Shown: piece after piece, positions 21,685-46,946 of the stretch
How positions within the stretch are numbered: the first letter of the stretch is position 1
Layout of the letters: every line of letters begins with the position of its first letter
The notes under the pieces: generated by a model
What the model was told of the DNA's origin: nothing
What the model saw: the letters and a program-made list of their open reading frames with translations, nothing else
The model's database searches: none
NCBI GenBank assembly: GCA_032718475.1
Contig: JAUCBJ010006803.1
Location: 1-64,000 of the forward strand
DNA length: 64,000 nt
From: Nemertoderma westbladi
Taxonomy: Eukaryota > Animalia > Xenacoelomorpha
Direction: 5' to 3'
Made by a program: the position numbers and the translations under genes

Positions 21685-22405
21685 TGTAAAAGCTTTTGCG
21701 TAATTAACCGGTTATTTTCCCGTAAAGTACTCTGTACTTAACTTTACTGCTTTTGCTGTCGGTTGTTCATTATATTTGTTGATGAAATATTATATCGGAA
21801 TACTGATCAATAGTCAGACACCCCAATCTTCTTGATATACTAAAGGTTAGAGAGACCGGTTACATATAAACGATTGCGTCCTATGTTAAGTGGTTTGAAG
21901 TGAATCTAATGCTATTTCATAGGCCCGACATAAATTGTATGTTGCTCTCTTTATACGTGACTAAATTTAGTGAAGGTCGGCAGATTAGTGTGCAGTATTG
22001 TGCAGCATTGTGTATGATTGTAACTGATAACAAAGCATCTCCTAAAGAATGCGCCATATACGTGAATCTATAGCCTTTTCGTTGTGTCTAGTTTAAGTCA
22101 TAACTCTGTTTACATATTTAGAGCGCCACGTCCTAAAGGAACTGTTAATATTTCCCGAAAGTGAATAATATTTGTCAGAGATTATATATTACGATCAGTC
22201 GAATAATACAGTAGGCTTACACCATCAATCATTAAGCTTCCAAATTCAGTCTCCCGGGTATATCCAGCGGGTGAATGATTGCGCATAGACTGGCTTCGGC
22301 TAATGTAGTGTATCAAATACTCGTCATAGGCTAAAGACTATATATCATCTAAAAGACATCCTAATTTGGCAGGTTAAACTGTCAAAGGTCTTAAAAGCGC
22401 AAACA
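21685..22405 (+). repeat. Outer element 5' LTR (internally deleted, 721 bp)
   Basis: TGTAAAAGC...GCGCAAACA. Near-identical to 45750-46946 except for a ~476-bp deletion and a few substitutions. Confidence 0.92.
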
Positions 22406-22416
22406 ATAACAGATAT
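22406..22416 (+). promoter_or_regulatory. Non-tRNA primer-binding site candidate, outer element (ATAACAGATAT)
   Basis: Immediately follows the LTR end, does not start with TGG, and is the exact complement of ATATCTGTTAT at 46184-46194 in the intact LTR. Confidence 0.7.
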
Positions 22417-22754
22417 TTGGTTCTGATTGCGGTGTAGGCAATAAATACAGTTTAATATTGTTTTGGTAAAAACAATAACAGATAGTGCTTCTAGATTGCG
22501 GTGTAAGCAATCTAGTCGAAAGTACCGGTCGACCGGTAACCAGTAGGCCTGACTGCCTGATCATCCGGACCGGTACCTACAGCAGTACAGGTACAACAGT
22601 ATTATTCGATTGTGGTATTGTATACCGGTAGGCTGTTTAAGAGATTAGGGACTGTACACCCCTTGTTTCTTTTGGAGCTTACTTATTTCTGTCAGTTTTA
22701 TTTATTTGTAGGCCAGTATTGAGCAGAAGGCATGTAAGCCTGCTCAGATTGTAC

Positions 22755-23330
22755 AGATAATTTGTAGGCTTGACTGTTGTCTAACTGTTGTTAAGTCTGA
22801 ACGGATTGCAGTGTGTGTAGAGCATCTGTCCGATAAAGTGCTAGTTAGGAAAGTAGGGGCTTCAAGTGCTGTGAGGTAAACCCCCTGTGAAAGAATAAGT
22901 CGTACTACTGGGTTAGAACGCATACTAACTAATCATTTCGGAGTCTGCATATACTGTAGTGTATTTAGGCTTGATAGTAGTCTGCCATCGTTTGGTCTGT
23001 ACTTTGTTTGTGTAGTCTGTACGGGTAGCGTATAATTTTATTTAGATAATTTGTAGGCTGGATAGTTGTCTGGCTGTTGTTGGGTTTGAGGAAATTTCGG
23101 TGTGTGTAGAGCATCTGTCCGATAAAGTGCTAGTTGGGAACGTAGGGGCTTCAAGTGCTGTGAGGTAAACCCCCTGTGAAAGAATAAGTCGTACTACTAG
23201 GTTAGAACGCATACTAACTAATCATTTCGGAGTCTGCATATACCGTAGTTTGTTTAGGCTTGATAGTAGTCTGTCAGTATTTGGTCTGCATTTTGTTTGA
23301 ATAGTCTGTACGCGTAGCGTAATATTTATT
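22755..23330 (+). repeat. Two ~289-bp direct repeats in the outer element leader
   Basis: AGATAATTTGTAGGCT at 22755 and 23044. A homologous pair lies at ~34770-35345 in the inner element. Confidence 0.85.
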
Positions 23331-23947
23331 ATTCAGAGTTTATGCGATTATTCGCAACATTCATATCCCCAAGTTTATTCCTACAGTAATTGTGTTTGTT
23401 ATACATACCGTTATAGTTAAACTAACCCCGGTACTACATCAGGGCTGCTCGGCGTAGGTAAAGACTGGAGATTTTGTGCTTTGGTCACTCCGGCAGATAC
23501 CGTGGTTCTTTTAACTGTTCAAGTATTTTTAACTACTAATTATTTGTTGTACAAGTACTTGTACCTAATTTAGGGTTTAGTGTACTGTACTTTCCGAAGG
23601 TGATTAGTGTGTAGGCAGTATATTTGTGTTGTAAAGTGGTTAATAGGCACGTTGGTTCTGGTAGACCGCGGTAATTAATCTCTAGGTAGGAACACTCCGT
23701 GATACATAACGTAGTACCTATAGCGATACGGTTATAGGTCGTCAGACGGTGGTATTTTCCTATCTGGACAACGCAGTATATTTACTACTACTTATTATTT
23801 TCAAATACCGTAGTAACCTGTCCGTTGTAATAACCAGATATTCTAACCCTTTGTTAGGCTGGTTAGTAGACTTCTTGTAAAATTACCCTAAAAATTCGCA
23901 TTTGTGTATTTGTAATTAAATTTTTGTGTTTATTTAGAGATTGTAAT

Positions 23948-25135
23948 TGTTCGCGCTTTCAGACCTTTGGCAGTTTAACCCGCCAAATTAGGATGTCTTC
24001 TAGATAATAAATCGCTTTAGCCTCTAACAAGTATTTGATTCACTACACTAGTTGAAACCAATCTGTGCGCGATCATTCACCCGTTGGATATACCCGGGAG
24101 ATTGATTTCGACAGCTTAATCGTATTGCTATGTAAGCCTAATGTATTATTCGACTGACAGTATTATATAATCTCTGACAATATTATTCACCTTCGGGGAA
24201 TATTAACAGTTCCTTTAGGACGTGGCGCTCTATCTATATAAACAGAGTTATGACTTAAACTACTCACAACGATATGGCTTAGTTACAATTCACATATATG
24301 GCGCATTCTTTAGGAAATGCTTCGTTATCAGTCTCACTCATACACAATGCTGCACAATACTGCACACTAATCTGCCGATCTTCACTGATTTTAGTCACAT
24401 ATAAAAGGAACACGGACCGAATCATGTAGGGTCTATCAAATAACATTAGATTCACTTCAAACCACTTTAACATAAGTCACAATTGTTATATGTAACCCTT
24501 CTCTCTTACCTTCGGTATATCAAGAATATTGGGTTTCGGGGTTATTTATCGTTATTCCAAATATAATAATTCATCAACCATATTATGAAGAACTGACAGT
24601 AAATAGCAGTATAACAATATAAAGTATGCACAGGTTGTTTGATTAGGTATGGTATGTTATGTTGTGATAAATGCAGATAACGGATATATGTCCTTATAAT
24701 TAAGCCTACTAGTGTAGGGCTAAAGCCGTTCTTCCTGGCTTAGAATCACCAACAACACTAAAAACTGATAAGAATAACTATAAGAATACCAGCTACCCTT
24801 ATTCTACAAAGATCTCACCCACCACAGAGAATGAGCATACAGATAGGAAATTCAGTTCAGTAGATCTGTGATAGGTCAAAATCAAAACCAACTCAAATCC
24901 TATTGGCAGATACAGAAAGCAGGGCTATGGGGCAACGTGGCAATATCAGCCGTTAGCCGTCGTCATGGTAGCGACACTGTTTTCAAGAGTATCGAGCTTT
25001 TACGTCACGAAATTGAAGATTATGTCCTCTAAAGTACAAATACAGAAGAAATGGCTTTTATGTCCTCCAAAACACCAGTACAGCAAGGACACTTTACGGG
25101 GATAATAACCGGCTAATTACGCAAAAGCTTTTACA
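23948..25135 (-). repeat. Inner element 3' LTR (1188 bp)
   Basis: Matches 35779-37002 apart from a 36-bp deletion and one substitution that I noticed. Preceded on the minus strand by GGGAGCGG (25136-25143). Confidence 0.93.
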
Positions 25136-25164
25136 CCGCTCCCAGAAAATGGGATTTAAGTCTA

Positions 25165-26545
25165 TAAAATATAACAAATCACAGTTTCTAAAATATAAAG
25201 ATACTCTAAACAGTTAGTCTTTCTTACGCAGACGGCGTTTACGCAGTTTTTTTGAGGCTAGCAAGAGTCCTTTTCTCTTTGGGGCGAGCCACTTTACTAG
25301 GAGGGCTATAAATCCTGGGTGAAGGGTGCAATATGATTGTATCAGAAGGTGTAGGATTATGGTCGGGGTATCCGCCGTTTCGATATGCTTCTCCTCGAGC
25401 TGATTTTCCTCCGCTCGTAGCTGGATACGTTCATCCAAAACTCTCGCAGAGAATAGGGTTTTCTAAGCTTGATATCTTCTTAGAGATTCGAGATTTCCCA
25501 ATCGAACTGAGATAAGGCCAATTCGTTTATCGATTGGACTTACTGTTATAACTTACGTTTATCTGAACAAACGCAGGTTTCTTTTTTGATCTTTATAGAA
25601 TAGCGTTTAACTCGTTTCGTACAACGCTCTCCTTCACCTTGATGAAGGGTTGTATCGCGTTAAACGGGAACGACCATACGGTTGGATAGTGATATTAGGT
25701 GTCCGCGTCACAATCCGGCTAGGTAAGATGGGCGGCTAGCTAGAAATCACTATCGGAGTGTTACCGATTAATTGTTAGGGTAGCACTAGATCTTTGAACA
25801 GTGAATACAGTCCGCGAGGATCCGCGACACCACCAGGATCGCAGGTCTGAGGTCCAACTAAGGAATGAGGAGGTTTGACCGAGTATTCCGGGACTCTGAT
25901 CGTAGGTTTACTCCAGGATCGTTCGAGCCGAGTGAGCATAGGTGATACGTCAAACAAGTTTGGCTCGAAACTCCAATAAATATAACGAGCACAACTGTGT
26001 TTAACACAACGTTTCCGTGGATGTTTATGTCTTTCCGTTTATTAGTTGGGTCTAGGGCATTTATCGTAATAATACCAAAGACGCACGTCTGGTAGGGGAA
26101 ACGCGGGTGATATTTATTTGTTGTTACAATGCTTCTATCAAGAATTCCAAATATACGTTGGAGTTACCGCGTTTATTTGTTTCTTTAGTGTCTTTTCTTT
26201 CGAGTCGATTTCGAATAGAATTTTCGCATTCGAAATTCAGTTTATGGTTCCGACTCCGCTGGGCAGGATATATAGTCGACATAGTCCGTATTGTGTAAAT
26301 CGATAGGATGACCAGTAGTTAAGAAGCCCATATACGTACCATTACGCTGCGTATATCGAGCAGCGAATTTTCTATAGTCCAACTCGCGCGAGCTGCTCTT
26401 GGGACATTGGCGGTTCGATATAACGACCATCGTCCTCTGCAGCAGTTGGACTAACGTCGCCGCGTATTAAGCTATCAACAAACGCTTGTAAAAGTAGAGT
26501 ATATCGCTCCCCGATACCAAGACCATCTTCTATCAACTCCGTCAT
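25165..26545 (-). pseudogene. Degenerate second ORF of inner element, unknown product
   Basis: Fragments MTELIEDGLG..., FDVSPML... and DERIQLRAEENQ... are collinear with 44157-45723. Confidence 0.55.
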
Positions 26546-28200
26546 ATCTGCTATATATGAGTTTATCCATATTATAATGAGTTTATATTTAGGCGAGCGG
26601 GCGTCGCTGCCTACCCCAATCAACCCCCGGACAGTACGAGATCCTCAGCGCCGATGTGTCGTCGCCACTGTACTTTCGCCAACGACGTAGCCGCACAATG
26701 ACAACGACAACCGGCACAAGTCACTCGACTGTCCGTCCCAAAGGCTTAGATACACCTCAGGTTCTTACTGGAGAGTTAGGGTTACTTTCACAATTGCGAC
26801 TCGCTACTGTAAACACACCTTAGTAGTAACATTCGCCTATAAACTCACAAATACCACACACACAACTTGTCACAAATTACACACACTCGGGTCACTTGTC
26901 CGTTAGTCAATGCCTTCCAGAATGTCACTGTATTATTATGTATCCTTGGATACTATCAGTGCACTATTTATTCCCTATGCTATTCAATGGGACAAGCTTT
27001 CTATTGTTCTCTTAACTCAATTCTAATTCTAGCGTGGTTGTTGCTATGGTGACATTATGTAAAGCTAGCGGTAGAATTAGGGTAATTCCAATGCATACAG
27101 ATCTGGGATGTTATTTAATAGTAATTCTTTAATAGTCAATGTCCTGTTTTATACATGACTTTATGAATTTTATCGGCTATTGACTATGTTTGGGAGACTT
27201 CGCACACTCATACTCATAATAAGATAAATCTCCGCTCCCTTGATCTATTAATTAATGGAATTTTGGGAATGTTATAAATTGCGTAAAAATGGCAATTTAT
27301 TAAATTCATTAAAAGGCATGAATTTAAATTTATTCCCTGAAATTTTATTATTTGATAATTAAATTGACATATTTTGATTCTAGAACATGTCTGGGGACAC
27401 AAGATCCTTAATTCTATGACAATTGTCTTTTTAAGAATATCGGTAAATGCTACGATATCTTAATTGACTAGAATTGTTGAAGGATCTGAATTTTACAGAT
27501 TTTGATTTATTAGATTTGCAAATATTAAATAATTAATATTTGAGATGGGCACCAATTTATTCCAGAACTTGTCTGGGGACGTTAACCACTGATTCTAAAA
27601 TTTGTCTTTCAAGTATATCGGTGGGTGCCGCGATATCTTAATCGACTAGAATTACAGATGGTCAAAAGGTTTAACAGATTTATGTGCGTTTTACGCTACT
27701 GTTAGAGGGACATCACGCTACTATATGTATTATTATATACGGTATGAGAGCAATATCGCACGAAGCAATGTCAGTGTGAAGAGGCAAGTCGTTTCCAAGG
27801 TCTACCCAGAGCTTGGTTTAGCCGAGACACGAGGATCTGAACTTTGCATTCCTAATACTCTGCCTACCAATAATACTTAAATATAGTAGTGGCTTTATTG
27901 TACTTTAATAAGTACGGACATTTCATCTTACTGTAGTCACGTATTTATAATATGATACGGACAGTAAGGAAAGAGGAAAAGAATTATTTCTTGCCGTCGC
28001 ATTAAATATAATATATACGTAATTAAGTAATAAACGCGAATATATATTGCACTAATCTACTAAATAATCGCTAAAATAACATTCTACTGAATAAAATTAA
28101 AGAAAACGATTATAATAAAATTACATAGTAATACATACAGAAATATAAAAATAATAAAATAATATAAAATAAAAGAGTCACACACCCACTCCATATGTTG

Positions 28201-31200
28201 TTACGTTATGGAGTCCCTAGATGTTTGAAGGATTAGGGAGGTGGTCGTGGGAAGAGAATCTTGCCTTCCACAGTTTCCGGAGAGTCCTCCATTCCCTTCC
28301 GGTAAACACAAACGACCGACTGGGTGATTGAGTCGCTGCATCCCGAATACAATTCCAGGTTTCCTCTTCATCCTGGAATAGTGACGATAGAAGCATCGCT
28401 CTAAGTACACGACGGCCTTACAAAGCCGATTCCAGGAGCTATAGTGGTCCGTCGCTCCCTGCAGGAGAGGTGAGAGTCCCTGCGAGACGTCTGATGTTCC
28501 AGAGCTCCAATCGCTCTCTCTGATCTTCATGAAGGATCCACTCGCGGTGGGGAGGTCCAGATCCACGGCGTCGTCCCTGGCAATATGTAATACCGACAGA
28601 TCTATCCCGGGTTCAAATAACTCCGCTCCACCCGTCCGGGTTTTAGGTTTAACTTTCTCCGCTCCCTTGGCTGGTCTAATCTCAGTCGGAGTAAGATGGG
28701 GAGGCCATTCATCCTCCTTACTCAGGAAGTCGGGTTCACCTAACCGGTCTGTAGTATCTGTCAGTTCTTGAGGAGTTGCTCCTCTGGAAGCGATGTCAGT
28801 TGGATTAAACTTCTTGGGGCAATATCTCCATTGATCTACATTGGAGCTAATATCGTCATTATCTGAGGAGTATGGTGTTCCCTCAGTTGGGTCGTCTCCC
28901 TCACTAGTATCATCTTCCCATTCACTCACCTGGCAGACGCGATCTTGAAGCAGTCTTTCTCTGAGCGTTCTACGGGAAGGTCCAGTAAGGTACCAACCTA
29001 CTCTAGTTCTTACCGCATAGGTCTGAAGTGGTTGCGGTTGAGTAGGTCGTTTCTCTAATGTCTCCAGCGCCTCATGCGCGTTTTGACCGATTAATATTTG
29101 TACTCCAGGATAATCGGTGTCGAATCTAGGGATGTTAAGTTGTTGCGCATGATCATCTTCGTCCCAATTATAAGGTTCCACTTGGGTGGTAGCGAAGTTC
29201 TTTATTGCCACCATTTTTACTGACCTTATACTGTATTCTCCTAGTTTATCCTGTGGAGTGGACAACTCACCTATATAATAGTCGGCAGCTACAGTAGAAT
29301 TCCAAACCTGCATGATCCCTGACATGTTTAGCTTGGTTCGGAACTTGGGTTGTCCAGCAAAGATGACTTCGGCTAGTTCTTTATCGATGAATGTTCCTGT
29401 GCTACCGGAGTCCAGGAGGGCGTTCACTATATAGCTCTTCTGAGGTCCGTGAACCCGTAACTGGACTACAGGAAATTCTCGGATTCCTATATTGGAAGTT
29501 GGCGCTTTCCAAGATGGTTGTTGATCTGAAGTAGTTAGGGTGAGGTCGCTGTCTGTGTCTTTCTCATACATGAGTGCTCGATACACTGCGGTGGTGTTTA
29601 TTAAGTAACAGGATTCGTTTTCGTCGGAGAACTCGTCCGTATAGAATCCTTCCATCTCAGATTGATCAGTGTCGTTCACATCACTGAATTGGACATGTAG
29701 TTCGGACTCACTTACCTGACTCGGGCTGTTTCGTTCGAATTCCGTGTGCAACAAGATATGATGTTTTGCGCCGCACTTCGCACACCTTGCGTCGGAGTAA
29801 CAGGTTCGCCGTTGGTGTCCTCGTCTGAGGCAATTATAACACAACCGCTTATCCCACATGACTTCACGTCTATCCTTTAGTGATTTCCTCAGGAATTTAT
29901 CACACGCATTTAAACGGTGGGGCCCGTCGCACAGCACACATTTCGGCTTGATGTTACTTACTTTAACCTGTGCTATGTGGTGCACACTTGTTCTTTCCTC
30001 GGGCTTTCTCACCTGAATTCTTTTAGGAGACGTAGGAAGGGTTTTTTGTACCGGTTCCCTTCTGTCATTGGGTCGAGACTCGGATTTACTTACCTGATCT
30101 TTAGGCATTTTATTGACATAATAAGATCTGTCAGTGTCTTTCCTGCTGTCCTCTCCTTGAGAAGTTTGGCTTTCACCGTCGTCGGTATAACATACTGGTG
30201 TTACCCTTCTCCTAGAAACGGGTTTCTCACTTACCTTGTTTTCCAATGTCTTCTCTCTGGACTGCCTTAGGAGCTGTAATTTCACTTCTCTATCTAAGAA
30301 TGACATGAGATCAGTCATGGTAGGGTCTCGTCGTTGTTGTTCCATCATATATAACACCTTCTTGCCCCAGCGTGTACCTACTCCACCCTTGGGCAAAGTA
30401 GATGCTAAGGCTCCTACAACCATAGAATTCTGGTATTCATGAGACTTACCTAACCAATCTAGTTGTCTACAGATCTCCTGAATCTCATCGGAAAACTCTA
30501 TAATCCCGCTGCTAAGAAACTTTCGGGGCGCCATTAATTTCGCATATAAATACCTAGCTATGTTAGTCCTATTACCATACCTGATGTTTAGTGTATCCCA
30601 AACTTGTCTTAATCCATCTGGATGTCCAATAAATTTTAACGCCATTGACTTGGGAGATCCTTCCAAGCACTCGATGAGGAATCTAAGTTTCTCTCCATTA
30701 GATAGCACAGAGTTCTGTATGTTATCTTTGTAATATTCATTAAAAGGTAACCATTTCATCTCATCTCCATTGAACTTGACGATCTCTCCCACCTTTACCG
30801 CTTGCCGGGCTTCGGTTCTAGCCATTTGACGCGTAAAACTTTCTTGAGCCATCGTATTATTGAATATAGAATTATCGGTATATAAATTTCTCGGATTATG
30901 ATCAGGTCTATAAGGAATATTATTATCAACAGGTTTATAATTACCCTGAATAGGGTTTACTATAGGAGTTTCTACTTCACTAGCAGTATGGATGCGTGTA
31001 GGCTCCACACCTTGCACATGAAATACTTCAGACCTAACGGGTTGACACATTGTTACAGGGGGTGGTGTTATACCCCTTTGTATGTTCACTAATTTATCGC
31101 ATTCTAACGCGATACTTTGCTGCACCTTTTGCAACTCTAACCTACTTTCCCTTACTGTTCCCTTGAGCTGCTGAACAGTCTCTTCCATTTCCCGGACCTG

Positions 31201-33318
31201 CTGAGAGGAGCACAAACAGTGTTCCCTCAGCTGCTCGAGCAGGAGACCCATCTCCCGTCGTCCCTCAGCTACCCACTCAACCGCCGAAGCGGGAGTCGCC
31301 AACGTTGTAGCGGGCGAGCGAGAGACGACGGGCGATAAATTCTTGATACCTCGCTCGGCGTCCAGGACGGGTTCGGACTCGGGAACAATCCTACTGGGCA
31401 CAGGTAGTTTAGTACTGTGCAAAGGGAATCTAGAGGTGGTTTCTGGGAGCACAGGTGTCTCTAGCACCGAAGGGGTGTCTTCGAGAACAGGCCTAATTAT
31501 TTCAGGCTCATCTGTTATAGTAGGGAGTCTTTCTATTTTAATTATTTGGTCTGTGGGCTCTGTACTACCTAAGTTGGTGTTATTTAGTTGCCTTCTAACA
31601 GCTGGAGGCAAATCAGGCAATTTTTGATGGTGGAATGTTCTTTTACGTCTACTTAGACGAGATCTATTTCCCTTGCCTTCAGTATCGGTGGTATCGCCTT
31701 CCTCAGATGATGTGTATCCCTGTCTTTTGGGAGTAGATCGATTCATCATCTGCATATTACTAGCTGTTAACTGTTTATTTATGCAGTCTTGATTCTCCTG
31801 AATGTTTTCCAATTCTAATTGGGTGGTTTCTTCAGTCGCTCTCCGTTCAGCTTCTGCCACTGCCTCTGTGGCCTTTCTCTCAGCCTCGGCCGCCTTTGCT
31901 TCTGCCGCTGCCGCTGCCGCTGCCGCTGCCGCTGCCGCTGCCGCTTTTGCCTCTGCCGCTGCCGCTGCCGCTTTTGCCTCTGCTGCTGCCTCTGCCGCCT
32001 TTGCCTCTGCCGCTGCCTCTGCCGCCTTTGCCTCTACCGCTGCCGCTTTTGCTTCTGCCGCTGCCGCTGCCGCTTTTGCCTCTGCTGCTGCCTCTGCCGC
32101 TGCCGCTTTTCTTTCTGCTTCTGCAGCTACCACTGCTGCTTTCTTTCTGTCTTCTATACGTTTTTTCTTTACTTGCTCTTCTTGGACTCGTGTGATGCGG
32201 AGTTGTTCATCGAATTTAGCCTGATTCGCAGCCCTCATTTCCACATCGATGGCATCCAACACAAGCTTGGTTCCTTCACTATTAGGGCTAAGTCCCTCTA
32301 ACCTTCTCCTCAACTCGTCATCACCTAAAAAACGTTGATAGTCCGACAGATAGATGTCAATGGCATCCCTCTTATGCGGTTTCTCTGCCGTCGCTTCACT
32401 TTCCACTTGGGAATAAGTAGCGTCTGTTGATTCTCCATGGGTTGAGTGCTCCTCCAGCTGAGCTTTCCACTGAGCTGTTCCTTGAACCTGGCGACTCACC
32501 CGTTGAAACCAAGTTTTTACGGCAACTTGCAACGACGTGTCTTGTCTTCGTTTAGAAGCCTCCTCAAAGGCCGATAATATTAACCTGATTCGTAGAATTC
32601 TTTCTCTTACTTGATAAAGCAGCTGTCCCTGCTCTTGAGGTCCTTGAGGTTGTTGTAACAGTTGTTTTTCTACTCGCTCCATAGAGCTGAAGAATCCCTG
32701 TGCGTATCCGGCTGCGGACCTCTTCCACACAGCTGGATCGATGGTTTCCTCGGCTACTCCCATCCGGTGTATGTCTTCCCAGGCAGCTTCGGATAAATCA
32801 AACGGGAGTCCGGGTCCGGGAAAGTTCCATTGCGACTCGACCATGGACTTCAGTTCTTCCCTTGTGTATCCAGCATAACTATCTCTAGTTGAACGCTGGC
32901 TTCTCGCCCAATCGATCTGGTGTTCTTCCACAGCGATCAATAACCTAGTGAGTACGGCTGCAGGAAGGATGAGAAGGGGATCTGAATAAGCCTCATCCGT
33001 CATCCTTGCTCCGCGTTCGGGTGTCAGCTCTGCAGTATCTTCACTACTGGAGCTGTTGAGCCGCTGAGAAATAAGTTCTTGGCTCGCGGGTTGTTGCTGT
33101 TCCGCTGCTTCTTGGTTCCGCTTGACCTGAGCTCGAGTGCCTATGACAGACCTACGATGTTGGACCAGCCTAGGTTCTTTTATTACTACTGGAGGGATGA
33201 CCTTCCTCACAGTGGGAGGTGAACTGAACTTACGACCAGACGGTTCTACGTCTCTATCTGAGTCGCAGATAGTTACATCTAATAAACTGTCTGACAGGTT
33301 CTGCTTAGTATCAGACAT
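28201..33318 (-). CDS. BEL/Pao Gag-protease polyprotein (1705 aa) without RT/RNase H core/integrase
   Basis: DUF1759-type capsid region (KFNGD...W..F, EKLRFL...LEG, L..RYG), three Cys/His knuckles (C..C...H....C, CYNCLRRGH....C, CAKCGAKHHILLH), protease ALLDSGS, RTRVGWYLTGP, then only the NP.D..SRG and SSW.RL remnants of pol. Confidence 0.9.
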   Translation of the reverse strand: MSDTKQNLSDSLLDVTICDSDRDVEPSGRKFSSPPTVRKVIPPVVIKEPRLVQHRRSVIGTRAQVKRNQEAAEQQQPASQELISQRLNSSSSEDTAELTPERGARMTDEAYSDPLLILPAAVLTRLLIAVEEHQIDWARSQRSTRDSYAGYTREELKSMVESQWNFPGPGLPFDLSEAAWEDIHRMGVAEETIDPAVWKRSAAGYAQGFFSSMERVEKQLLQQPQGPQEQGQLLYQVRERILRIRLILSAFEEASKRRQDTSLQVAVKTWFQRVSRQVQGTAQWKAQLEEHSTHGESTDATYSQVESEATAEKPHKRDAIDIYLSDYQRFLGDDELRRRLEGLSPNSEGTKLVLDAIDVEMRAANQAKFDEQLRITRVQEEQVKKKRIEDRKKAAVVAAEAERKAAAAEAAAEAKAAAAAAEAKAAAVEAKAAEAAAEAKAAEAAAEAKAAAAAAEAKAAAAAAAAAAAAAAEAKAAEAERKATEAVAEAERRATEETTQLELENIQENQDCINKQLTASNMQMMNRSTPKRQGYTSSEEGDTTDTEGKGNRSRLSRRKRTFHHQKLPDLPPAVRRQLNNTNLGSTEPTDQIIKIERLPTITDEPEIIRPVLEDTPSVLETPVLPETTSRFPLHSTKLPVPSRIVPESEPVLDAERGIKNLSPVVSRSPATTLATPASAVEWVAEGRREMGLLLEQLREHCLCSSQQVREMEETVQQLKGTVRESRLELQKVQQSIALECDKLVNIQRGITPPPVTMCQPVRSEVFHVQGVEPTRIHTASEVETPIVNPIQGNYKPVDNNIPYRPDHNPRNLYTDNSIFNNTMAQESFTRQMARTEARQAVKVGEIVKFNGDEMKWLPFNEYYKDNIQNSVLSNGEKLRFLIECLEGSPKSMALKFIGHPDGLRQVWDTLNIRYGNRTNIARYLYAKLMAPRKFLSSGIIEFSDEIQEICRQLDWLGKSHEYQNSMVVGALASTLPKGGVGTRWGKKVLYMMEQQRRDPTMTDLMSFLDREVKLQLLRQSREKTLENKVSEKPVSRRRVTPVCYTDDGESQTSQGEDSRKDTDRSYYVNKMPKDQVSKSESRPNDRREPVQKTLPTSPKRIQVRKPEERTSVHHIAQVKVSNIKPKCVLCDGPHRLNACDKFLRKSLKDRREVMWDKRLCYNCLRRGHQRRTCYSDARCAKCGAKHHILLHTEFERNSPSQVSESELHVQFSDVNDTDQSEMEGFYTDEFSDENESCYLINTTAVYRALMYEKDTDSDLTLTTSDQQPSWKAPTSNIGIREFPVVQLRVHGPQKSYIVNALLDSGSTGTFIDKELAEVIFAGQPKFRTKLNMSGIMQVWNSTVAADYYIGELSTPQDKLGEYSIRSVKMVAIKNFATTQVEPYNWDEDDHAQQLNIPRFDTDYPGVQILIGQNAHEALETLEKRPTQPQPLQTYAVRTRVGWYLTGPSRRTLRERLLQDRVCQVSEWEDDTSEGDDPTEGTPYSSDNDDISSNVDQWRYCPKKFNPTDIASRGATPQELTDTTDRLGEPDFLSKEDEWPPHLTPTEIRPAKGAEKVKPKTRTGGAELFEPGIDLSVLHIARDDAVDLDLPTASGSFMKIRESDWSSGTSDVSQGLSPLLQGATDHYSSWNRLCKAVVYLERCFYRHYSRMKRKPGIVFGMQRLNHPVGRLCLPEGNGGLSGNCGRQDSLPTTTSLILQTSRDSIT

Positions 33319-33454
33319 GTCTACGTATACCGTTGAATGTCTACTGCTGTATTACAGTCTGAGCAAGTCTAGTAACTCAGTATTAACTGCTAGCCTAGTA
33401 ATTAATTACCGATACTGCTACTCAGTGTAGTAGGATATATATATAATATATTAG

Positions 33455-35767: not shown

Positions 35768-35778
35768 ATATCCGTTAT
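35768..35778 (-). promoter_or_regulatory. Non-tRNA primer-binding site candidate, inner element (ATAACGGATAT)
   Basis: Directly follows the 5' LTR end on the minus strand. Exact complement of minus-strand ATATCCGTTAT at 36508-36518 (also 24677-24687). Confidence 0.7.
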
Positions 35779-37002
35779 TGTTCGCGCTTTCAGACCTTTG
35801 GCAGTTTAACCCGCCAAATTAGGATGTCTTCTAGATAATAAATCGCTTTAGCCTCTAACAAGTATTTGATTCACTACACTAGTTGAAACCAATCTGTGCG
35901 CGATCATTCACCCGTTGGATATACCCGGGAGATTGATTTCGACAGCTTAATCGTATTGCTATGTAAGCCTAATGTATTATTCGACTGACAGTATTATATA
36001 ATCTCTGACAATATTATTCACCTTCGGGGAATATTAACAGTTCCTTTAGGACGTGGCGCTCTATCTATATAAACAGAGTTATGACTTAAACTACTCACAA
36101 CGATATGGCTTAGTTACAATTCACATATATGGCGCATTCTTTAGGAAATGCTTCGTTATCAGTCTCACTCATACACAATGCTGCACAATACTGCACACTA
36201 ATCTGCCGATCTTCACTGATTTTAGTCACATATAAAAGGAACACGGACCGAATCATGTAGGGTCTATCAAATAACATTAGATTCACTTCAAACCACTTTA
36301 ACATAAGTCACAATTGTTATATGTAACCCTTCTCTCTTACCTTCGGTATATCAAGAATATTGGGTTTCGGGGTTATTTATCGTTATTCCAAATATAATAA
36401 TTCATCAACCATATTATGAAGAACTGACAGTAAATAGCAGTATAACAATATAAAGTATGCACAGGTTGTTTGATTAGGTATGGTATGTTATGTTGTGATA
36501 AATGCAGATAACGGATATATGTCCTTATAATTAAGCCTACTAGTGTAGGGCTAAAGCCGTTCTTCCTGGCTTAGAATCACCAACAACACTAAAAACTGAT
36601 AAGAATAACTATAAGAATACCAGCTACCCTTATTCTACAAAGATCTCACCCACCACAGAGAATGAGCATACAGATAGGAAATTCAGTTCAGTAGATCTGT
36701 GATAGGTCAAAATCAAAACCAACTCAAATCCTATTGGCAGATACAGAAAGCAGGGCTATGGGGCAACGTGGCAATATCAGCCGTTAGCCGTCGTCATGGT
36801 AGCGACACTGTTTTCAAGAGTATCGAGCTTTTACGTCACGAAATTGCAGATTATGTCCTCTAAAGTACAAATACAGAAGAAATGGCTTTTATGTCCTCCA
36901 AAACACCAGTACAGCAAGGACACGGCCTTTTTATGCCTGGTAAACCAACCACAGAGTACTTTACGGGGATAATAACCGGCTAATTACGCAAAAGCTTTTA
37001 CA
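35779..37002 (-). repeat. Inner element 5' LTR (1224 bp)
   Basis: TGTAAAAGC...GCGCGAACA on the minus strand, near-identical to 23948-25135. Confidence 0.93.
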
Positions 37003-37847
37003 GTAATCTCAACCTGAATTGTACGTAATTTGTAGTATTAAGTAACTTAGGTAAATTAGAATTATTTGTTTTAGTGTCTAACAAGTAGCACTCCACTGAG
37101 AGCGCACAGCTTATGTGTAGTGACTCCCCCAGAAATAATAACATTTATTTCGAACATTGACAAAACCCATTAAACAGGTATATATATATTATAAATCAAC
37201 TCAAACGATTTATAAATAGTAGGCCTGCCATACAACAATTAGGTCTCAATATCAGTTGGACTACTGCTTAAATAACGGTAATAAAGTAAGTTAAAGTAAC
37301 CAAGTAACCCTTAAAATTCAGAAATTCAATTATTCTAAAATAATTGATATACCGGTATTTACAATAGGCTTATTATCTTTATTTCTATAAATTTAGGCTG
37401 AAATTATACCGGTATTCTGTAATTAATTCTAGTCTGTAATTATACTTATATATATACATTATAAGTGTAAGCTGTATACCGGTATTCACGATAGGCCTAT
37501 TATATATAAATTTAGGCTGAAATCATACCGGTATTCTGTAATTAATTCTAGTCTGTAATTCTACTTACATATATACATTATAAGTGTAAGCTGTATACCG
37601 GTATTCACGATAGGCCTATTATATATATAAATTTAGGCTGAAATCATACCGGTATTCTGTAATTAATTCTAGTTACTAATAATACTTATATATACTATAA
37701 GCATACCGGTATTCTAATATTATATATATATCACGCTATACTGAGTAGCAGTATCGGTAATTAATTACTAGGCTAGCAGTTAATGCTGAATTACTAGACT
37801 TGCTTAGACTGTAATATAGCAGTAGCCATTCAACTGTGTAAACAAAC

Positions 37848-40800
37848 ATGTCTGATACTAAGCAGAACCTGTCAGACAGTTTATTAGATGTAACTATCTG
37901 CGACTCAGATAAGGGTGTAGAACCGTCTACACCTAAGTTCAGTTCACCTCCCACTGTGAGGAAGGTCATCCCTCCAGTAGTAATAACAGAACCTAGGCTG
38001 GTCCAACATCGTAGGTCTATCATAGGCACTCGAGCTCAGGTCAAGCGGGACCAAGAAGCAGCGGAACAGCAACAACCCGCGAGCCAAGAACTTATTTCTC
38101 AGCGGCCCGACAGCTCCAGTAGTGAGGATACTGTAGAGCTGACACCCGAGCGCGGAGCAAAGATGACGGATGCGGTTTATTCGGATCCCCTTCTCATCCT
38201 GCCTGCAGCCGTACTCACTAGGATATTGATCGCGGTGGAAGAACACCAGATCGATTGGGCGAGAAGTCAGCGATCAACTAAAGATAGTTATGCGGGATAC
38301 ACAAGGGAAGAACTGAAGTCTATTGTCGAGTCGCAATGGAACTTCCCCGGACCCGGACTCCCGTTTGATTTATCAGAAGCTGCCTGGGAAGACATACACC
38401 GGATGGGAGTAACCAAGGAAACCATCGATCCAGCTGTGTGGAAGAGGTCCGCAGCCGGATACGCACAGGGATTCTTCAGCTCTATGGAGCGACTAAAAGA
38501 ACAACTGTTTCAACAACCACAAGGACCTCAAGAGCAGGGACAACTGCTTTATCAAGTTAGAGAAAGAATTCTGCGAATCAGGCTAATCTTATCGGCCTTT
38601 GAAGAGGCTTCTAAAAGAAGACAAGACACGTCGTTGCAAGTTGCCGTAAAGACTTGGTTTCAGCGGGTGAGTCTCCAGGTTCAAGGAACAGCTCAGTGGA
38701 AAGCTCAGCTGGAGGAGCGCTCAACCCATGGAGAATCAACAGACGCTACTTTTTCCCAAGTGGAAAGTGAAGCGACGGCAGAGAAACCGCATAAGAGGGA
38801 TGCCATTGACATCTATCTGTCAGACTATCAGCGTTTTTTAGGAGATGAAGAGTTGAGGAGAAGGTTAGATGGACTTAGCCCTAATAGTGAAGGAGCCCAG
38901 CGTGTGTTGGACGCAATTGATGTGGATAGGATAGCTGCGAACCAAGCTAAATTTGATGAAAGTATCCGCATCGCTAAGGTTCAAGAAGAACAAGTAAAGA
39001 AAAAACGTATAGAAGATAGAAAGACAGCAGCAGCGGCAGTGGCAGCGGCAGAAGCGGAAAGAAAAGCGGCAGAAGTGGATAGAAAAGCGGCAGAGGCAGC
39101 GGCAGAGGCAAAAGCGGCAGCGGCAGAGGCAAAAGCGGCAGCTGCAGCGGCCGAAGCGGAAAGAAAAGCGGCAGCAGCAGAAGCGGAAAGAAAGGCGGCC
39201 GAAGCGGAAAGAAAAATAGCAGTGGCAGAAGCAGAACGGAGGGCATCTGAAGAGACAACCCAACTAGAGTTGGAAAATCTTCAAGAGAGACAAGACAACT
39301 TTAATAAACAGTTAACAGCTAGTAATATGCAGATGATGAATCGATCTACTCCCAAAAGACAAGGTTATACATCATCTGAGGAAGGCGATACCACCGACAC
39401 TGAAGGCGGAGGAAATCGATCTCGCCTAAGCAGACGTAAAAGAATGTCCCACCAGTCAGAAATTGCCTGATTTGCCTCCAGCTGTTAGAAGGCAACTAAA
39501 TAACACCAACTTAGGTAGTACAGAACCCACAGACCAAATAATTACAATAGAAAGACTCCCTACTATAGTAGATGAGCCTGAAATAATTAGGCCTGTTCTT
39601 GAAATCACCCCTTCGGTGATAGAGACACCTGTGCTCCCTGAACCTACCTCTAAATTCCCTCTGCACAGCACTAAGCTACCTGTGCCCAGTAGAACAGCCC
39701 ATGAGACAGTTCAGGTCCTGGACTCCGAGCGAAATATTCATGATTTGTCGCCCGTTGTCCCTCGTCCGCCCGCTACAACGTTGGCGAATCCCGCTTCGGC
39801 GGTCGAATGGGTGGATGAGGGACGACGGGGGATGGATCTCCTGCTCGGACAGATGCAGGAGACCGTTCAGCAATTCAAGGGCACAGTAAGGGAAAGTAGG
39901 TTAGAGTTGCAAGAAGTGCAGCAAAGTATCGCGCTAGAACGCGATAAATTAGTAAATACACAAAGGGGTATACCACCACCCCCTGTAACAATGTGTCAAC
40001 CTGTTAGGTCTGAAGTATCTCATGCGCAAGGTGTGGAGCCTACACGCATCTATACTGCTAGCGAAGTAGAAACTCCTATAGTGAACCCTATTAAGGGTAA
40101 TTATAGACCTGTTGATAATGACATTCCCTATAGACCTGATCATAATCCGAGAAATTTATATACCGATAACTCGATATTAAATAACACGATGGCCCAAGAA
40201 AGTTTTACGCGCCAAATGGCTAGAACCGAAGCCCGCCAAGCGGTAAAGGTGGGAGAGATCGTCAAGTTCAATGGAGATGAGATGAAATGGTTACCTTTTA
40301 ATGAATATTACAAAGATAACATACAGAACTCTGTGCTATCTAATGGAGAGAAACTTAGATTCCTCATCGAGTGCTTGGAAGGATCTCCCAAGTTAATGGC
40401 GTTAAAGTTTATTGGACATCCAGATGGATTAAGACAAGTTTGGGATACACTAAACATCAGGTATGGTAATAGGAATAACATAGCTAGGTATTTGTATGCA
40501 AAATTAATGGCGCCCCGAAAGTTTCTTAGCAGCGGGATTATAGAGTTTTCCGATGAGATTCAGGAGATCTGTAGACAATTAGATTGGCTAGGTAAGTCTC
40601 ATGAATACCAGAATTCTATGGTTGTAGGAGCCTTAGCATCTACTTTGCCCAAGGGTGGAGTAGGTACACGCTGGGACAAGAAAGTGTTATATATGATGGA
40701 ACAACAACAACGAGACTCTACCATGGCTGATCTCATGTCCTTCTTAGATAGTGAAGTAAAATTACAGCTCCTAAAGCAGTCCAGAGAGAAGACATCGGAA

Positions 40801-42527
40801 AACAAGGTAAGTGAGAAACCCGTTTCTAGGAGAAGGGTAACACCAGTGTGTTATACTGACGACGGCGAAAGCCAAGTCTTCTCAGGAAGAGGACAGCGGG
40901 AAAGACACTGCAAAGATCTTACTATGACAATAAAATCCTAAAGGACGTAAGTAAATTCAAGTCTCGAACCAATGACAGGAGAGAACAGGTAAGAAAAACT
41001 CCTCCTACGTCTCCTAAGAGAATTCATGTAAGAAATCCCGAGGAAAGAACGAACGTGCACCACACAGCACATGTTAAAGTAAGTAACATCAAGCCCAAAT
41101 GTGTGCTGTGCGACGGGCCCCACCGTTTAAATGCGTGTGATGAATTCCTGAGGAAATCACTAAAGGATAGACGTGAAGTCATGTGGGATAAGCGGTTGTG
41201 TTATAATTGCCTCAGACGAGGACACCAACGGCGAACCTGTTACTCCGACGCAAGGTGTGCAAAGTGCGGTGCGAAACATCATATCTTGTTGCACACTGAA
41301 TTCGAGCGAAATAGTCCGAGTCAGGTGAGTGATTCCGAACTACATGTCCAATTCAGTGATGTGAACGACACTGATCAATCTGAGATGGAAGGATTCTATA
41401 CGGACGAGTTCTCCGACGAAAACGAATCCTGTTACATGATAAATACCGCAGTGTATCGAGCACTCACTTATGAAAAAGATACAGAAAGTGACCTCACTCT
41501 AACTACTTCTGATCGACAACCATCTTGGAAAGCGCCAACTTCCAATGTAGGGATTAGAGAATTTCCTGTGGTACAGATAAGGGTCCACGGACCAAAAAGG
41601 AGTTATGTAGTGAACGCCCTCCTTGACTCCGGTAGTACAGGAACATTCATCGACAAAGAGCTAGCCGAAGACATATTTGCTGGACAACCCAAGTTCCGAA
41701 CTAAGCTAAACATGTCAGGAATTATGCAGGTTTGGAAATCTACAGTAACAGCGGATTATTATGTAGGTGCGTTGTCCACCCCCCAGGACGAACTAGGAGA
41801 ACATAGCATAAGGTCAGTGAAAATGGTGGCAATAAAGAACTTCGCTACCACCCAAGTGGAACCTTATAACTGGGATGAGGACGATTTCACCCAGCAGTTT
41901 GAAATACCTAGATTCAACACCGATTACCCTGGAGTCCAAATACTCATCGGTCAAAATGCGCATGAAGCGCTCGAGACATTGGAGAAACGGCCTGCTCAAC
42001 CGCAACCTCTACAAGTTTATGCGGGAAGAACTAGAGTAGGTTGGTACTTTACTGGCCCTTCTCGTAGAACTCTTATGGAAAGATTACCAAAAGAACAGGT
42101 ATATCAATTAAGTGAACGGGAAGTGGAGAGCAGTGAAGTTTACGACCCAACTGAGGGAACACCATACTCCTCAGATAATGACGACATCAACTCCAATGAA
42201 GATCAATGGAGACATTGCCCCGAGACGATCAATCTAGCCGACATCGCTTCCAGAGGAGCAACTCCTCAAGAACTTACAGATACTCCAAACCGGTTAGGTG
42301 GACCCGACTTCCTAAGTAAAGAAGATGAATGGCCTCCTCAGCTTACCCCGGTGAAGATTAGACAGGCCAAGGGAGCGGAGAAAGTAACACAACCACTCAA
42401 TCGCCCAGCTGGTCGTTTATGTTTACCGGAAAGAGACCAAAAACTGTCCGGAAACTATGGAAGGCAAGATACTCTTCCCACGACCACCTCCCTAATCCAA
42501 CAAATATCTAGGGACTCCATAACGTAA
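37848..42527 (+). pseudogene. Outer element Gag-protease, frameshifted
   Basis: Three ORFs (37848-39470, 39463-40941, 41055-42527) collinear with the inner 1705-aa protein, with the same start MSDTKQ and end RDSIT*. Confidence 0.9.
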
Positions 42528-44156
42528 CAACATACGGAGTGGGTGTGTGACTATATTATTTTATATTTATTTTTATTATTTTATATTATGTATGTATTAT
42601 TATGTAATTTTATTATAATCGTTTTCTTTAATTTTATTTAGTAGAATGTTATTTACTGATTATTTAGTAGATCAGTGCAATATATTAGTGTTTATTACTT
42701 AATTACTTATATATTATATTTAGTGCGACGGCGAGAAATAATTCTTTTTCTCTTTCCTTGCTGCCCGTATTACATTACGAATACGTAACTACAGTAAGAT
42801 GAAATGTCCGTACTTATTAAAGTACAATAAAGCCACTACTATATTCAAGTATTATTGGTAGGCAGAGTATTAGGAATGCAAAGTTCAGATCCTCGTGTCT
42901 CGGCTAAACCAAGCTCTGGGTAGACCTTGGAAACGACTTGCCTCTTCTCACTGACATTGCTTCGTGCGATATTGCTCTCATACCGTATATTAAATAATAC
43001 ATATAGTAGCGTGATGTCCCTTTAACAGTAGCGTATAACGCAAAATAAATCTGTTAAACCCTTTGACCATCTGCAATTCTAGTCGATTAAGATATCGCGG
43101 CACCCACCGATATACTTGAAAGACAAAATTCTAGAATCAGTGGTTAACGTCCCCAGACAAGTTCTGAAATAAACTGGTGCCCATCCTAAATATTAATTAT
43201 TAATATTTACAAAATCTGTCAAATTTTAGATCCTTTAACATTCTAGTCGATTAAGATATCGTAGCATTTACCGATACTCTTAAAAAGACAAATTCATAGA
43301 ATCAAGGATCATATGTCCCCAGATATGCTCTGGAATAAAATTGTGTCTATTTAACATTAAATAATAAAATTTCAGGGAATAAATTTAAATTCATACTTTA
43401 ATGAATTTAATAAATTGCAATTTTATACAATTTATAACATTCCCAAAATTCCATTAATTAATAGATCATGGGAGCGGAGATTCACTATATTAAGTGTATT
43501 TGTGTGTGAGAATCTCCAATGTATAGTCAATAGCCGATAAAATTCATAAAATCATATATAGAGAGGATATTGACAATTAAAGAATTACCATTAAATAGCA
43601 TCCCAGATCTGTATGCATGAGAATTACCCTAATTCTACCGCTAGCTTTCCATAATGTCACCATGGCAACAACCACGCTAGAATTAGAAGTGAGTTAAAAG
43701 AACAATAGAAGGCATGCCCCATTGAATAGCATAGGGAATAAATAGCGCACTGCTAGTATCCAAGGATACATAATAAATACAGTGACATTCTGGAAGGTAC
43801 TGACTAACGGACAAATGGCCCGAATGTGTGCAGTTTGTTGCAGTTGTGTTGAATTTGTGCGTTTGTAGGTGAATGTTACTACTAAGGTGTGTTTACAGTA
43901 GCGAGTCGCAATTGTGAAAGTAACCCTAACTCTCCAAGAAGAACCTGCAGTACATCTAAGCCTTTGGGACGGACAGTGAAGTGACTTGTGCCGGTTATCG
44001 TTGTCGTTGTGTAGCTACATCGTTGGCGAAAGCACAGCGACGGTACATCGGCACTGAGGATCTTACACTGTCCGGGGGCAAAAGAGGGGTAGGCAGCGAC
44101 GCCCGCTAGCCTAATATATATAAACTCATTATAATATTGATAAACTCATAGCAGAT

Positions 44157-45723
44157 ATGACTGAATTGATAGAAGATGATCTTGGTATCAGGGAGCGATA
44201 TACTCTACCTTTACAAGCGTTTGTCGATAGCTTGATACGCGGCGACGTTGGTCCAACTACTACGGAGGACGATGGTCGTTATATCTAACCGCCAATGTCC
44301 CGGGAGCAACTTGCGCGTGGGTTAGACTGTAGAAAATTCACCGCTCGCTATACGCATCGTAATGGTACGTATATGGACTTCTTAACTACTGGTCATCCTA
44401 TCGACCTACACGATACGAACGATATAGACACCAAAGGGAAATGGTTTATTTAAATATCATACCCAGCGGAAGCGGAACGATAAACTGAGACTCGAACACG
44501 AAAATTCTATTCGAAACCGACTCGAAAGTGCAGATGTCGAAGAGCCGGATAAACGCAGCGACTCCACCAAATACCTGGAATTCTTGAGAGAAACCTATCT
44601 CGATATTACCAGTCAACAGAATCTAGAAACTCGATATCCTCAAGGTATACCTCATGACCGCATGGTGGAACTCAAACGGCTCTATTCCACTATGATGTAT
44701 CTTACCGCCGATCGATCGCTACCTGTTGTACCGGATAGTTTCGAACGGATGGAGGAATATTGTAAGCTGGAGAAAGATCACTCGCATTTCCCCTACAAGA
44801 CGTGCGTTTTTTGGTATTATTGCGATGAATGCCCAAGACCCAACCAACGAACGGAAAGACATAAACATCCGCGGAGACATTGCTTTAAACACGGTTTTAC
44901 TCGCTATATTTACGGGAGTTTCGAACGAAACTTGTTTGATGTATCACCTACGCTCGTTCGACTCAGACGATCCTTAAATAAACCAATGATCAGAGTTTCG
45001 GAATACTCGATCAGACCTCCTCATTCCCTAGTGAGACTCTTGATCCTATTAGTATGACGGATCCTCCTGAGCTGTACTCACTGCTCAAAGATCTAGTGTT
45101 ACCTGAACAATTAGTCGGTGGCACCCCGGTTGTGGGCTTCCTAGATATTAGCCCATCCTACCTAGCCGGATTGGGACGCGGACATTTAATATCGCTGTTT
45201 AACCCTTACCATCGTCCCGGCTTAACACGATATAACCTGTCACCAAAGTGGCGGAGAGCGTTGTACCAAATGAGTTAGACGCTATTCTACAAAGATCAGA
45301 AAGGGAACTTACGCTTGTTCAGATAAACGTAAATTGCACTAGCAAGTCCAAGCGGTAAACAAAGTAACTATATCTCAGTTCGATCGGGAAATCCAGAATC
45401 TCTAAGAAGTTATCGAACTTGGACGATCCTATTCTCTGCGAGAGTTTTTGGATGAACGTATCCAGCTACGAGCGGAGGAAAATCAGCTCGAGGAGAAGCA
45501 TATCGAAACGGCAGATACCTCGACCATAATCCTACATCTTCTGATGCAATCATATTGCACCCTTCACCCAGGAGTTATGGCCCTCCTAGTAAAGTGGCTC
45601 CCCCCAAAGAGAAAAGGACTCTTGCTAACCTCAAAAAACTGCGTAAACGCCGTCTGCGTAAGAAAGACTAACTGTTTAGAGTATCTTTATATTTTAGAAA
45701 CTGTGATTTGTTATATTTTATAG
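44157..45723 (+). pseudogene. Degenerate second ORF of outer element, unknown product
   Basis: Pieces MTELIEDDLG..., RETYLDI...CVFWYYCDEC...HKHPRRHCFKH, MTDPPELY... and DERIQLRAEE..., separated by stops and frameshifts. Confidence 0.55.
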
Positions 45724-45749
45724 ACTTAAATCCCATTTTCTGGGAGCGG

Positions 45750-46946
45750 TGTAAAAGCTTTTGCGTAATTAACCGGTTATTTTCCCGTAAAGTACTCTGT
45801 AGTTGGTTTACCAGGCATAAAAAGGCCGTGTCCTTACTGTATTGGTGTTTTAGAGGACATAAAAGTCATTTCTTCTGTATGTGTACTTTAGAGGACATAA
45901 TCCGCAATTTCGTGACGCAATAAGCTGGATACTCTTGAAAACAGTGTCGCTACCATGACGACGGCTAACAGCTGATATTGCCACGTCGAACATTTCTTTG
46001 TTCTTTGTTCTCGCTTTGTATGGTCGACCAATCAGAGCGTTTTTTGTCTCTGTGATAGGAGGTTGGATACAGAAACTCAGGAATTCAGTGTTATGTTTTT
46101 GCCCAGAGCCTAAGAACACCGGCTTTTGGCACCTCCGTGTTTCAGTCTTTAGCTTAACATTAGTAGGCTTAATTATAGAACGTATATCTGTTATCGAGTT
46201 ATCTTATCATATCTATCCATAAATTACTAATCTTACGAGTTACCGAGTTAACTCACTCACTTAATAATCATTTATACCTTATCTTTACTGCTTTTGCTGT
46301 CGGTTGTTCATTATATTTGTTGATGAAATATTATATCGGAATACTGATCAATAGTCAGACACCCCAATCTTCTTGATATACTAAAGGTTAGAGAGACCGG
46401 TTACATATAAACGATTGCGACCTATGTTAAGTGGTTTGAAGTGAATCTAATGCTATTTCATAGGCCCGACATAAATTGTATGTTGCTCTCTTTATACGTG
46501 ACTAAATTTAGTGAAGGTCGGCAGATTAGTGTGCAGTATTGTGCAGCATTGTGTATGATTGTAACTGATAACAAAGCATCTCCTAAAGAATGCGCCATAT
46601 ACGTGAATCTATAGCCTTTTCGTTGTGTCTAGTTTAAGTCATAACTCTGTTTACATATTTAGAGCGCCACGTCCTAAAGGAACTGTTAATATTTCCCGAA
46701 AGTGAATAATATTTGTCAGAGATTATATATTACGATCAGTCGAATAATACAGTAGGCTTACACCATCAATCATTAAGCTTCCGAATTCAGTCTCCCGGGT
46801 ATATCCAGCGGGTGAATGATTGCGCATAGACTGGCTTCGGCTAATGTAGTGTATCAAATACTCGTCATAGGCTAAAGACTATATATCATCTAAAAGACAT
46901 CCTAATTTGGCAGGTTAAACTGTCAAAGGTCTTAAAAGCGCAAACA
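45750..46946 (+). repeat. Outer element 3' LTR (1197 bp)
   Basis: TGTAAAAGC...GCGCAAACA, preceded by purine tract GGGAGCGG and followed by TSD CAGCA. Confidence 0.93.

Follow-up and report, generated by a model that had tools for sequence, protein, structure and literature searches.

An 11-nucleotide stretch of its own RNA as the likely primer of reverse transcription in a BEL/Pao-type retrotransposon family of Nemertoderma westbladi

[quoted passage not shown] The two copies are only 84-88% identical and are therefore treated as two subfamilies. This BEL/Pao-type family likely primes reverse transcription with an 11-mer of its own RNA, not with a tRNA. [quoted passage not shown]

Complementarity of the primer-binding site to the LTR

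In the outer copy, the PBS (PBS1, ATAACAGATAT, 22406-22416, +) starts at offset 0 from the terminal CA of the LTR, and its complement, the candidate self-primer, occupies nt 435-445 of the 3' LTR (46184-46194, +). In the inner copy, PBS1 (ATAACGGATAT, 35768-35778, -) likewise lies at offset 0, with the candidate self-primer at LTR nt 485-495 (36508-36518, -); this complement is present in both inner LTRs, at nt 485 of the 5' LTR and nt 449 of the 3' LTR. The match is exactly 11 nt long and stops at the LTR boundary; this boundary at the terminal CA is where the 3' end of a primer must sit. The 11-mer is among the 476 nt missing from the outer 5' LTR, so the pairing of the outer copy is taken from its 3' LTR. 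An initial annotation of this DNA had reported the 11-nt complementarity in both copies, and all of its coordinates proved right.

The two 11-mers lie at homologous LTR positions, and each PBS is complementary to the LTR of its own subfamily only, one position of the primer helix being A/T in one subfamily and G/C in the other. The A-to-G change in one 11-mer with a T-to-C change in its partner, proposed earlier, is thus confirmed, and the pairing is subfamily-specific. None of the 40 listed of 174 differences derived from the contigs of public sequencing runs falls on the two 11-mers. An extension of the primer pairing upstream of the 11-mer was considered and discarded, being neither significant (p 0.15 and 0.49) nor conserved at 20-30 nt.

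Dinucleotide shuffles of the LTR hold the 11-mer in 38/20000 and 20/20000 cases (99 and 58 when any offset from 0 to 5 is accepted), 3-6 times the chance of 3e-4 that had first been estimated, which was too low; among internal positions, 9 of 10260 in one case and 6 of 10618 in the other give at least 11 matching nt. The shuffle figures concern the 11-nt match alone, within a large scan, and are not decisive. A fortuitous match in AT-rich DNA would be expected in 0.1-0.5% of elements, and a scan comprises many elements, but such a match would also need to have survived with a matched change in a stretch whose surroundings are only about half identical between the subfamilies, and independently covarying helices adjoin the site. 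For the former reason in particular, chance is regarded as extremely improbable.

In neither copy does a TGG occur at offsets 0-11, in agreement with the earlier statement that neither PBS starts with TGG, and neither site has the 18-nt form complementary to tRNA-Arg or tRNA-Gly. The first TGG is found at offset 12 in the outer copy only and at offset 58 in both; offset 12, tried as a PBS start, was rejected because this TGG is lost in the inner copy. The 64,000-nt window contains no tRNA gene, and no copy of the U5 end was found in the JGI metagenomes.

A host RNA, for instance half of a tRNA cleaved within its anticodon loop, might serve as primer instead, with the LTR 11-mer as a merely structural or regulatory partner. 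One fixed primer of this type could bind both PBS variants by means of a G-U pair, and the outer complement contains CTGTTA, a pattern typical of the anticodon loop of tRNA-Asn; a cytosolic tRNA with AUAU on the stem side and U at position 38 would, however, be atypical. Half-tRNA priming is known in Copia lineages (PMC6317226, in excerpt). Priming by a host RNA is nevertheless considered unlikely, because it leaves unexplained the exact LTR complement, the change that this complement tracks and the intron-junction matches seen in other BEL families (see below).

Predicted fold around the primer-binding site

The leader and the final 200 nt of U5 were folded on their own using ViennaRNA, which cannot form pseudoknots. 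The same architecture is predicted for both copies: U5 pairs with itself and with the leader, such that a long U5-leader duplex is positioned just 3' of the PBS while, just 5' of it, a stem closes on the end of U5. The PBS would be kept mostly open between these two duplexes, its first half being predicted as unpaired. As delineated by predicted fold and covariation, the outer U5-leader duplex (22215-22439, +) comprises 22215-22223 with 22431-22439 and 22226-22231 with 22424-22429, and PBS1 is flanked by the U5 stem 22279-22284 with 22397-22402 and a hairpin at 22365-22386 (+). The inner U5-leader duplex (35745-35968, -) pairs 35968-35946 with 35768-35745, and the inner U5 stem pairs 35903-35891 with 35796-35782, next to a hairpin at 35818-35797 (-).

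Covariation was assessed by predicting the structure on one copy and scoring it on the other over the 3' 335 nt. Double-sided changes amount to 6 vs 0.8 expected (0/5000 randomisations) and, in the reverse direction, to 5 vs 0.9 (p 0.0006), and broken pairs to about half of the expectation (8 vs 17.1 and 6 vs 13.7); over the whole 800 nt the signal is weaker, with kept-fraction p values of 0.008 and 0.029. Moreover, exchanging the leader for that of the other subfamily weakens the U5-leader duplex (from -22.3 to -13.7 and from -24.7 to -18.6). The primer-PBS duplex itself is valued at -10.5 and -12.0 kcal/mol, and holding PBS1 open costs 1.1 and 4.1 kcal/mol.

Tf1 needs a ‘pretzel’, i.e. a central primer-PBS duplex located between two duplexes of PBS-adjacent and downstream LTR sequence (PMC10085805, in excerpt). 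A three-duplex arrangement of this type is predicted around the PBS of both copies, with covariation. The initial annotation had drawn the parallel to Tf1 from the primer match, and it now gains support from the flanking duplexes and their covariation, both of which are new; since both pretzel duplexes are predicted and covary, the case for self-priming is stronger than it had seemed. The U5-leader stem proposed in the same annotation as bracketing the site (TTAAACTGT with ACAGTTTAA, 22374-22382 and 22447-22455) did not hold: the letters are present, but the predicted pair probability is at most 0.001 in both copies and forcing the stem costs 4.2 and 8.2 kcal/mol. A local hairpin, maintained through exchanges among G-C, G-U and A-U pairs, outcompetes it.

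A duplicated primer-binding unit

In both copies, a unit consisting of the last bases of the LTR, the PBS and the helix strand following it recurs 69 nt downstream, and this second unit bears the letters of its own subfamily at the diagnostic positions. The outer second unit (22456-22515, +) holds a PBS copy at 22475-22485 (10/11 letters), which is partly contained in hairpins (22456-22477 and 22491-22515). The inner PBS2 (35699-35709, -; unit 35728-35671) is an exact second copy, 69 nt downstream of PBS1. The U5 strand that pairs at the first unit can also pair with the second (-23.9 and -17.5 kcal/mol), but a covarying hairpin takes up the second unit's first bases. PBS1 is taken as the site in use because the LTR ends match it. 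Forms with a single unit are found in the contigs of 3/4 sequencing runs, at low depth.

Non-autonomous BEL/Pao elements of recent origin

The coding region assigns the family to BEL/Pao. The inner copy contains a Gag-protease open reading frame (ORF) of 1716 aa from stop to stop (28201-33351, -), which comprises a DUF1759 capsid, a triple Cys-His box (residues 1138, 1171 and 1190), an LLDSG protease (ALLDSGS at residue 1314) and a scrap of the RNase H end; the outer Gag-protease region (37842-42527, +) is distributed over three frames and broken by frameshifts. DUF1759, the Pfam entry for the BEL-type Gag capsid, is detected in both copies (E 1e-12), and the triple Cys-His box and the LLDXG..LIG protease motifs are described as Pao/BEL hallmarks (PMC554778, in excerpt). 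All homologs found (24/24) are BEL-type polyproteins with BEL-associated Pfam domains, so that the BEL/Pao origin put forward in the initial annotation stands. [quoted passage not shown]

Neither copy has a remnant of reverse transcriptase (RT) or integrase; only the RNase H-end scrap aligns, and in the alignment to homologs the inner ORF skips from the protease straight to the RNase H end. A BEL-type Gag-protease followed by a scrap of BEL RNase H is as expected of an internal deletion. The family must borrow its RT, since RT and integrase are absent. Between the subfamilies, dN/dS in Gag-protease is 0.24 over 1563 codons and 0.10 in the protease, indicating purifying selection. To judge from this coding capacity, the elements are non-autonomous, successful deletion derivatives of BEL/Pao, not complete members. 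The protein is ~25-30% identical to all its relatives, and in a quick Gag-protease tree of 63 rows the family, which has no RT for a placement among the BEL, Pao, Tas, Suzu, Sinbad, Dan and Flow groups, lies on a long, unplaced branch.

Self-priming might be real while the LTRs and leader derive from a Tf1/sushi-like Gypsy element that copies them, only the Gag-protease cargo being BEL/Pao. The lack of RT and integrase in both copies and of an identified partner would be consistent with this arrangement, as would the 11-nt primer at offset 0 and the pretzel, both as in Tf1. No Gypsy or chromodomain match to the Gag-protease was found, however, and the elements do not belong to the Tf1/sushi group, whose proteins are those of Ty3/gypsy chromoviruses; the Gag-protease is BEL-type, under selection and followed by BEL RNase H scrap; the PPT resembles those of full-length BEL loci; and self-complementary PBSs are also seen in such loci. 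A Gypsy partner is therefore given a very low probability.

The LTR ends are fixed by target-site duplications (TSDs), CAGCA for the outer copy (21680-21684 and 46947-46951) and GTAAT for the inner one (23943-23947, +, repeated at 37003-37007), and TG..CA LTR ends, a PPT and a TSD are present as in BEL/Pao elements. The outer 3' LTR (45750-46946, +; PPT at 45742-45749) is 1197 nt long; the outer 5' LTR (21685-22405, +) has 721 nt and, by LTR comparison, is devoid of LTR nt 53-528, the 476 nt that hold the 11-mer. The inner 5' LTR (35779-37002, -) measures 1224 nt by comparison with the inner 3' LTR (23948-25135, -), which has 1188 nt, lacks 36 nt, carries the 11-mer at 24687-24677 and is preceded by the PPT GGGAGCGG at 25143-25136. 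The outer LTR pair differs by 3 mismatches in 721 aligned nt and the inner pair by 1 in 1188, so both insertions are young, and according to the contigs of four public sequencing runs the family is very abundant. With 0-3 LTR mismatches and intact TSDs, it has been mobile recently; its cis signals have accordingly been in use, given this mobility, its abundance and the Gag-protease dN/dS.

The ~3 kb 3' of the Gag-protease ORF (25136-28200, -; 42528-45749, +) are 84-87% identical between the subfamilies and have no long ORF in common. The N-terminal region of Gag is unusually long (~830 aa), is under purifying selection (dN/dS ~0.28) and includes an Ala/Glu/Lys-rich repeat (31817-32161, -; 39017-39235, +). 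The leaders of both copies carry a tandem repeat of ~289 nt (22755-23337, +; 35343-34780, -). GTAGGC occurs on the leader sense strand 7 times in 22406-23942 (+) and 10 times in 35778-33316 (-), against 0 and 1 on the antisense strand, and is also present in the block upstream of the primer; it is possibly a protein-binding or packaging motif.

Primer-site complements in other BEL loci

From metagenomes, 78 BEL loci were taken, in 8 of which the 3' end of the LTR is readable from a repeat; a TGG starts at offset 0 in none of these 8 and at offset 1 in one, L068. In 4/8 loci, which represent three families (L045 and L049; L051; L060), the PBS complements the element's own LTR only across an intron. 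These matches of 15, 14 and 12 nt begin at offset 2-3 and span an intron of 76-78 nt of the form GTAAGT..TTCAG; they are equalled by 0/255 other boundary pairs and 0/200 shuffles. Two further loci, L015 (11 nt) and L054 (12 nt, low complexity), show matches, with uncertain LTR ends, and L019 and L068 have no significant match at the primer site. A blind scan covering 55 BEL loci whose LTR ends are not fixed was too noisy to be informative (13 real vs 10 GA..AC control matches of at least 12 nt), and the viral contigs yielded a single BEL locus, without a 5' LTR, and then none.

Self-complementary primer sites, as recognized by these matches, thus do occur in full-length BEL elements. Because the complement may be situated beyond a splice donor, the primer of a BEL element does not have to consist of the first bases of the RNA. 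An intron-split primer within the window's own LTRs is not needed and is unsupported, 34/255 controls being as good.

The best match spans a GTAAG-type intron in L045, L049, L051, L056, L060, L074, L076, L039, L023 and L043, of which only L045, L049, L051 and L060 have independently fixed LTR ends; these LTRs come from contigs of marine or environmental origin. A second GTAAGT is present upstream in the LTRs of L049 and L060, and L005 and L006 are apparently tandem BEL elements on one metagenome contig of 18507 nt.

Proposed mechanism of initiation

By analogy to Tf1, the copy of the 11-mer on the cap side would anneal to PBS1 as a pseudoknot between the two duplexes. The RT that an autonomous partner would provide in trans would then cut just 3' of the 11-mer with its RNase H, and the freed 3'-OH would be extended into U5, starting at the terminal CA. 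Plus-strand synthesis would recopy the PBS from the primer and thereby keep the two in step, which may account for the matched change with no need for selection to arrive at it a second time. In Tf1, the primer has 11 nt and is released by an RNase H cut just 3' of the 11-mer (PMC7175516, in excerpt).

Whether transcription also starts at the 11-mer, as in Tf1, is doubtful. A 17-nt block common to both subfamilies in an otherwise divergent stretch (36526-36542, -; outer equivalent 46161-46177, +) is located directly upstream of the primer, much as in Tosmo LTRs, and speaks for such a start. The RNA may begin with the 11-mer itself, or the 11-mer may form the 3' end of a longer capped fragment; the two possibilities are about equally probable. 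The shared block might conceivably act as branch point plus acceptor, for which the spacing is just ~7 nt.

The 11-mer of the 3' LTR could alternatively be the primer, if the RNA ended or were cut right after it and circularised onto the PBS. Complementarity and covariation would be explained equally well; the AT-rich shared block, 18-35 nt upstream of the 3' end of the 11-mer, has the spacing of a polyadenylation signal, and further TATA-like words (CATAAAA) are found near LTR nt 70 and 110. Neither LTR has AATAAA or ATTAAA, however, the PBS lacks a T-run with which a poly(A) tail could pair, and the flanking duplexes fit the Tf1 layout. Priming from the 3' copy is thus held to have only a small chance of being correct.

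A number of observations weigh against priming by the element's own cap-side 11-mer. The primer is absent from the outer copy's own 5' LTR; only two subfamilies are available, with a single change in the primer helix; and a fixed primer from outside would likewise tolerate the A-to-G change in the PBS, through a G-U pair (-9.8 vs -10.5). Taken alone, the energy of the outer U5-leader duplex is unremarkable (43/300 shuffles; inner 1/300). A nested fold computed for the inner 5' region assigns the primer to PBS2 (p 0.7-1.0 across 9 bp) and gives PBS1 a p of 0, because pairing with PBS1 needs a pseudoknot, which is beyond the program. A TATA-like word begins 14-15 nt upstream of the 11-mer; the spacing between TATA and start is usually ~30 nt. 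As AATAAA and ATTAAA are missing, neither fixes R. The autonomous partner that would supply the RT was not found, the closest protein relatives being ~25-30% identical. Finally, the loci with intron-spanning primers are an analogy and not close kin, since the window family's long branch is outside their clade.

Relation to known self-priming elements

In Tf1 and Tf2 of S. pombe, Tj1 and Tosmo1-3, which are Ty3/gypsy chromoviruses of the Tf1/sushi type, a PBS at the LTR CA likewise complements a stretch of the LTR. The primer match of Tf1 has the same length of 11 nt as that of the window elements (PMC7175516, in excerpt), and Tf1/sushi elements also form two further duplexes between PBS-adjacent and U5 sequence, while Tosmo LTRs share the divergent U3 segment that ends shortly before the primer (both PMC10085805, in excerpt). 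Unlike Tf1/sushi elements, the window elements have BEL/Pao-type proteins, an animal host, a non-autonomous organization and a duplicated PBS unit, and their LTR of 1.2 kb continues for ~750 nt after the primer; transcription start and cleavage are proposed by analogy only.

For plant Tcn1 chromoviruses and TAR (Houba, Osr-1) Copia elements, self-priming has been predicted from an LTR match of at least 10 nt located 0-5 nt from the LTR end (PMC6317226, in excerpt). The window copies show a match of this length and position, although superfamilies and hosts differ. Self-priming has been demonstrated in Tf1, and predictions of it exist for the Tf1/sushi group as well as for Tcn1 and TAR Copia elements (PMC6317226, PMC4600332, PMC5341516, PMC6934838 and PMC3601003, all in excerpt). 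For BEL/Pao, the ICTV profile gives a PBS of 18 nt for tRNA-Arg or tRNA-Gly and priming by a host tRNA, and describes replication as poorly understood (PMC8742986); the window elements differ from it by having no tRNA PBS and by the deletion of RT and integrase. No published case of BEL/Pao self-priming was found in a search that did not extend to subscription papers, supplements, Repbase reports and GyDB pages, and term look-ups in the available portions of PMC3118150, PMC554778, PMC12440569 and PMC2774666 gave no mention of a PBS or of tRNA priming; PMC3286476 and PMC12451622 contributed no further information.

Predicted self-priming already spans two LTR superfamilies, and BEL/Pao would be the third. 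If true, tRNA-independent initiation would occur in animals outside the sushi lineage, the same RNA fold would have been invented repeatedly, and it would be explained why PBS filters based on tRNAs miss many BEL elements. A self-primer also allows exact predictions, namely the position of the RNA cut and the 5' end of the strong-stop cDNA. Somewhat less probable than its opposite is the broader proposal that self-priming is widespread in BEL/Pao, where it would have evolved independently and converged on the Tf1 pretzel: the primer may be ready-made, as in the window family, or splice-built, as in others, and the duplicated PBS unit, able to take the same primer and U5 strand, may act as a switch or parking site for initiation.

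Other features of the window

Outside the two elements, host-type genes (a ubiquitin-conjugating enzyme, LETM1, TROVE and Serinc) are present as single long intronless ORFs at 5650-9455, 49171-52164 and 61409-62764. Serinc shares at most 45% identity with its 120 best matches, which points to a divergent animal. A Helitron-like region (12214-21213) contains ORFs for a Helitron N-terminal domain and a PIF1 helicase; a weak OTU-like ORF and repeats of 62 nt are located close by. A G-skewed tandem array of a 41-bp unit in more than 50 copies extends over 54435-57000, and a 438-nt stretch adjoining it recurs in inverted orientation at 13016-13453.

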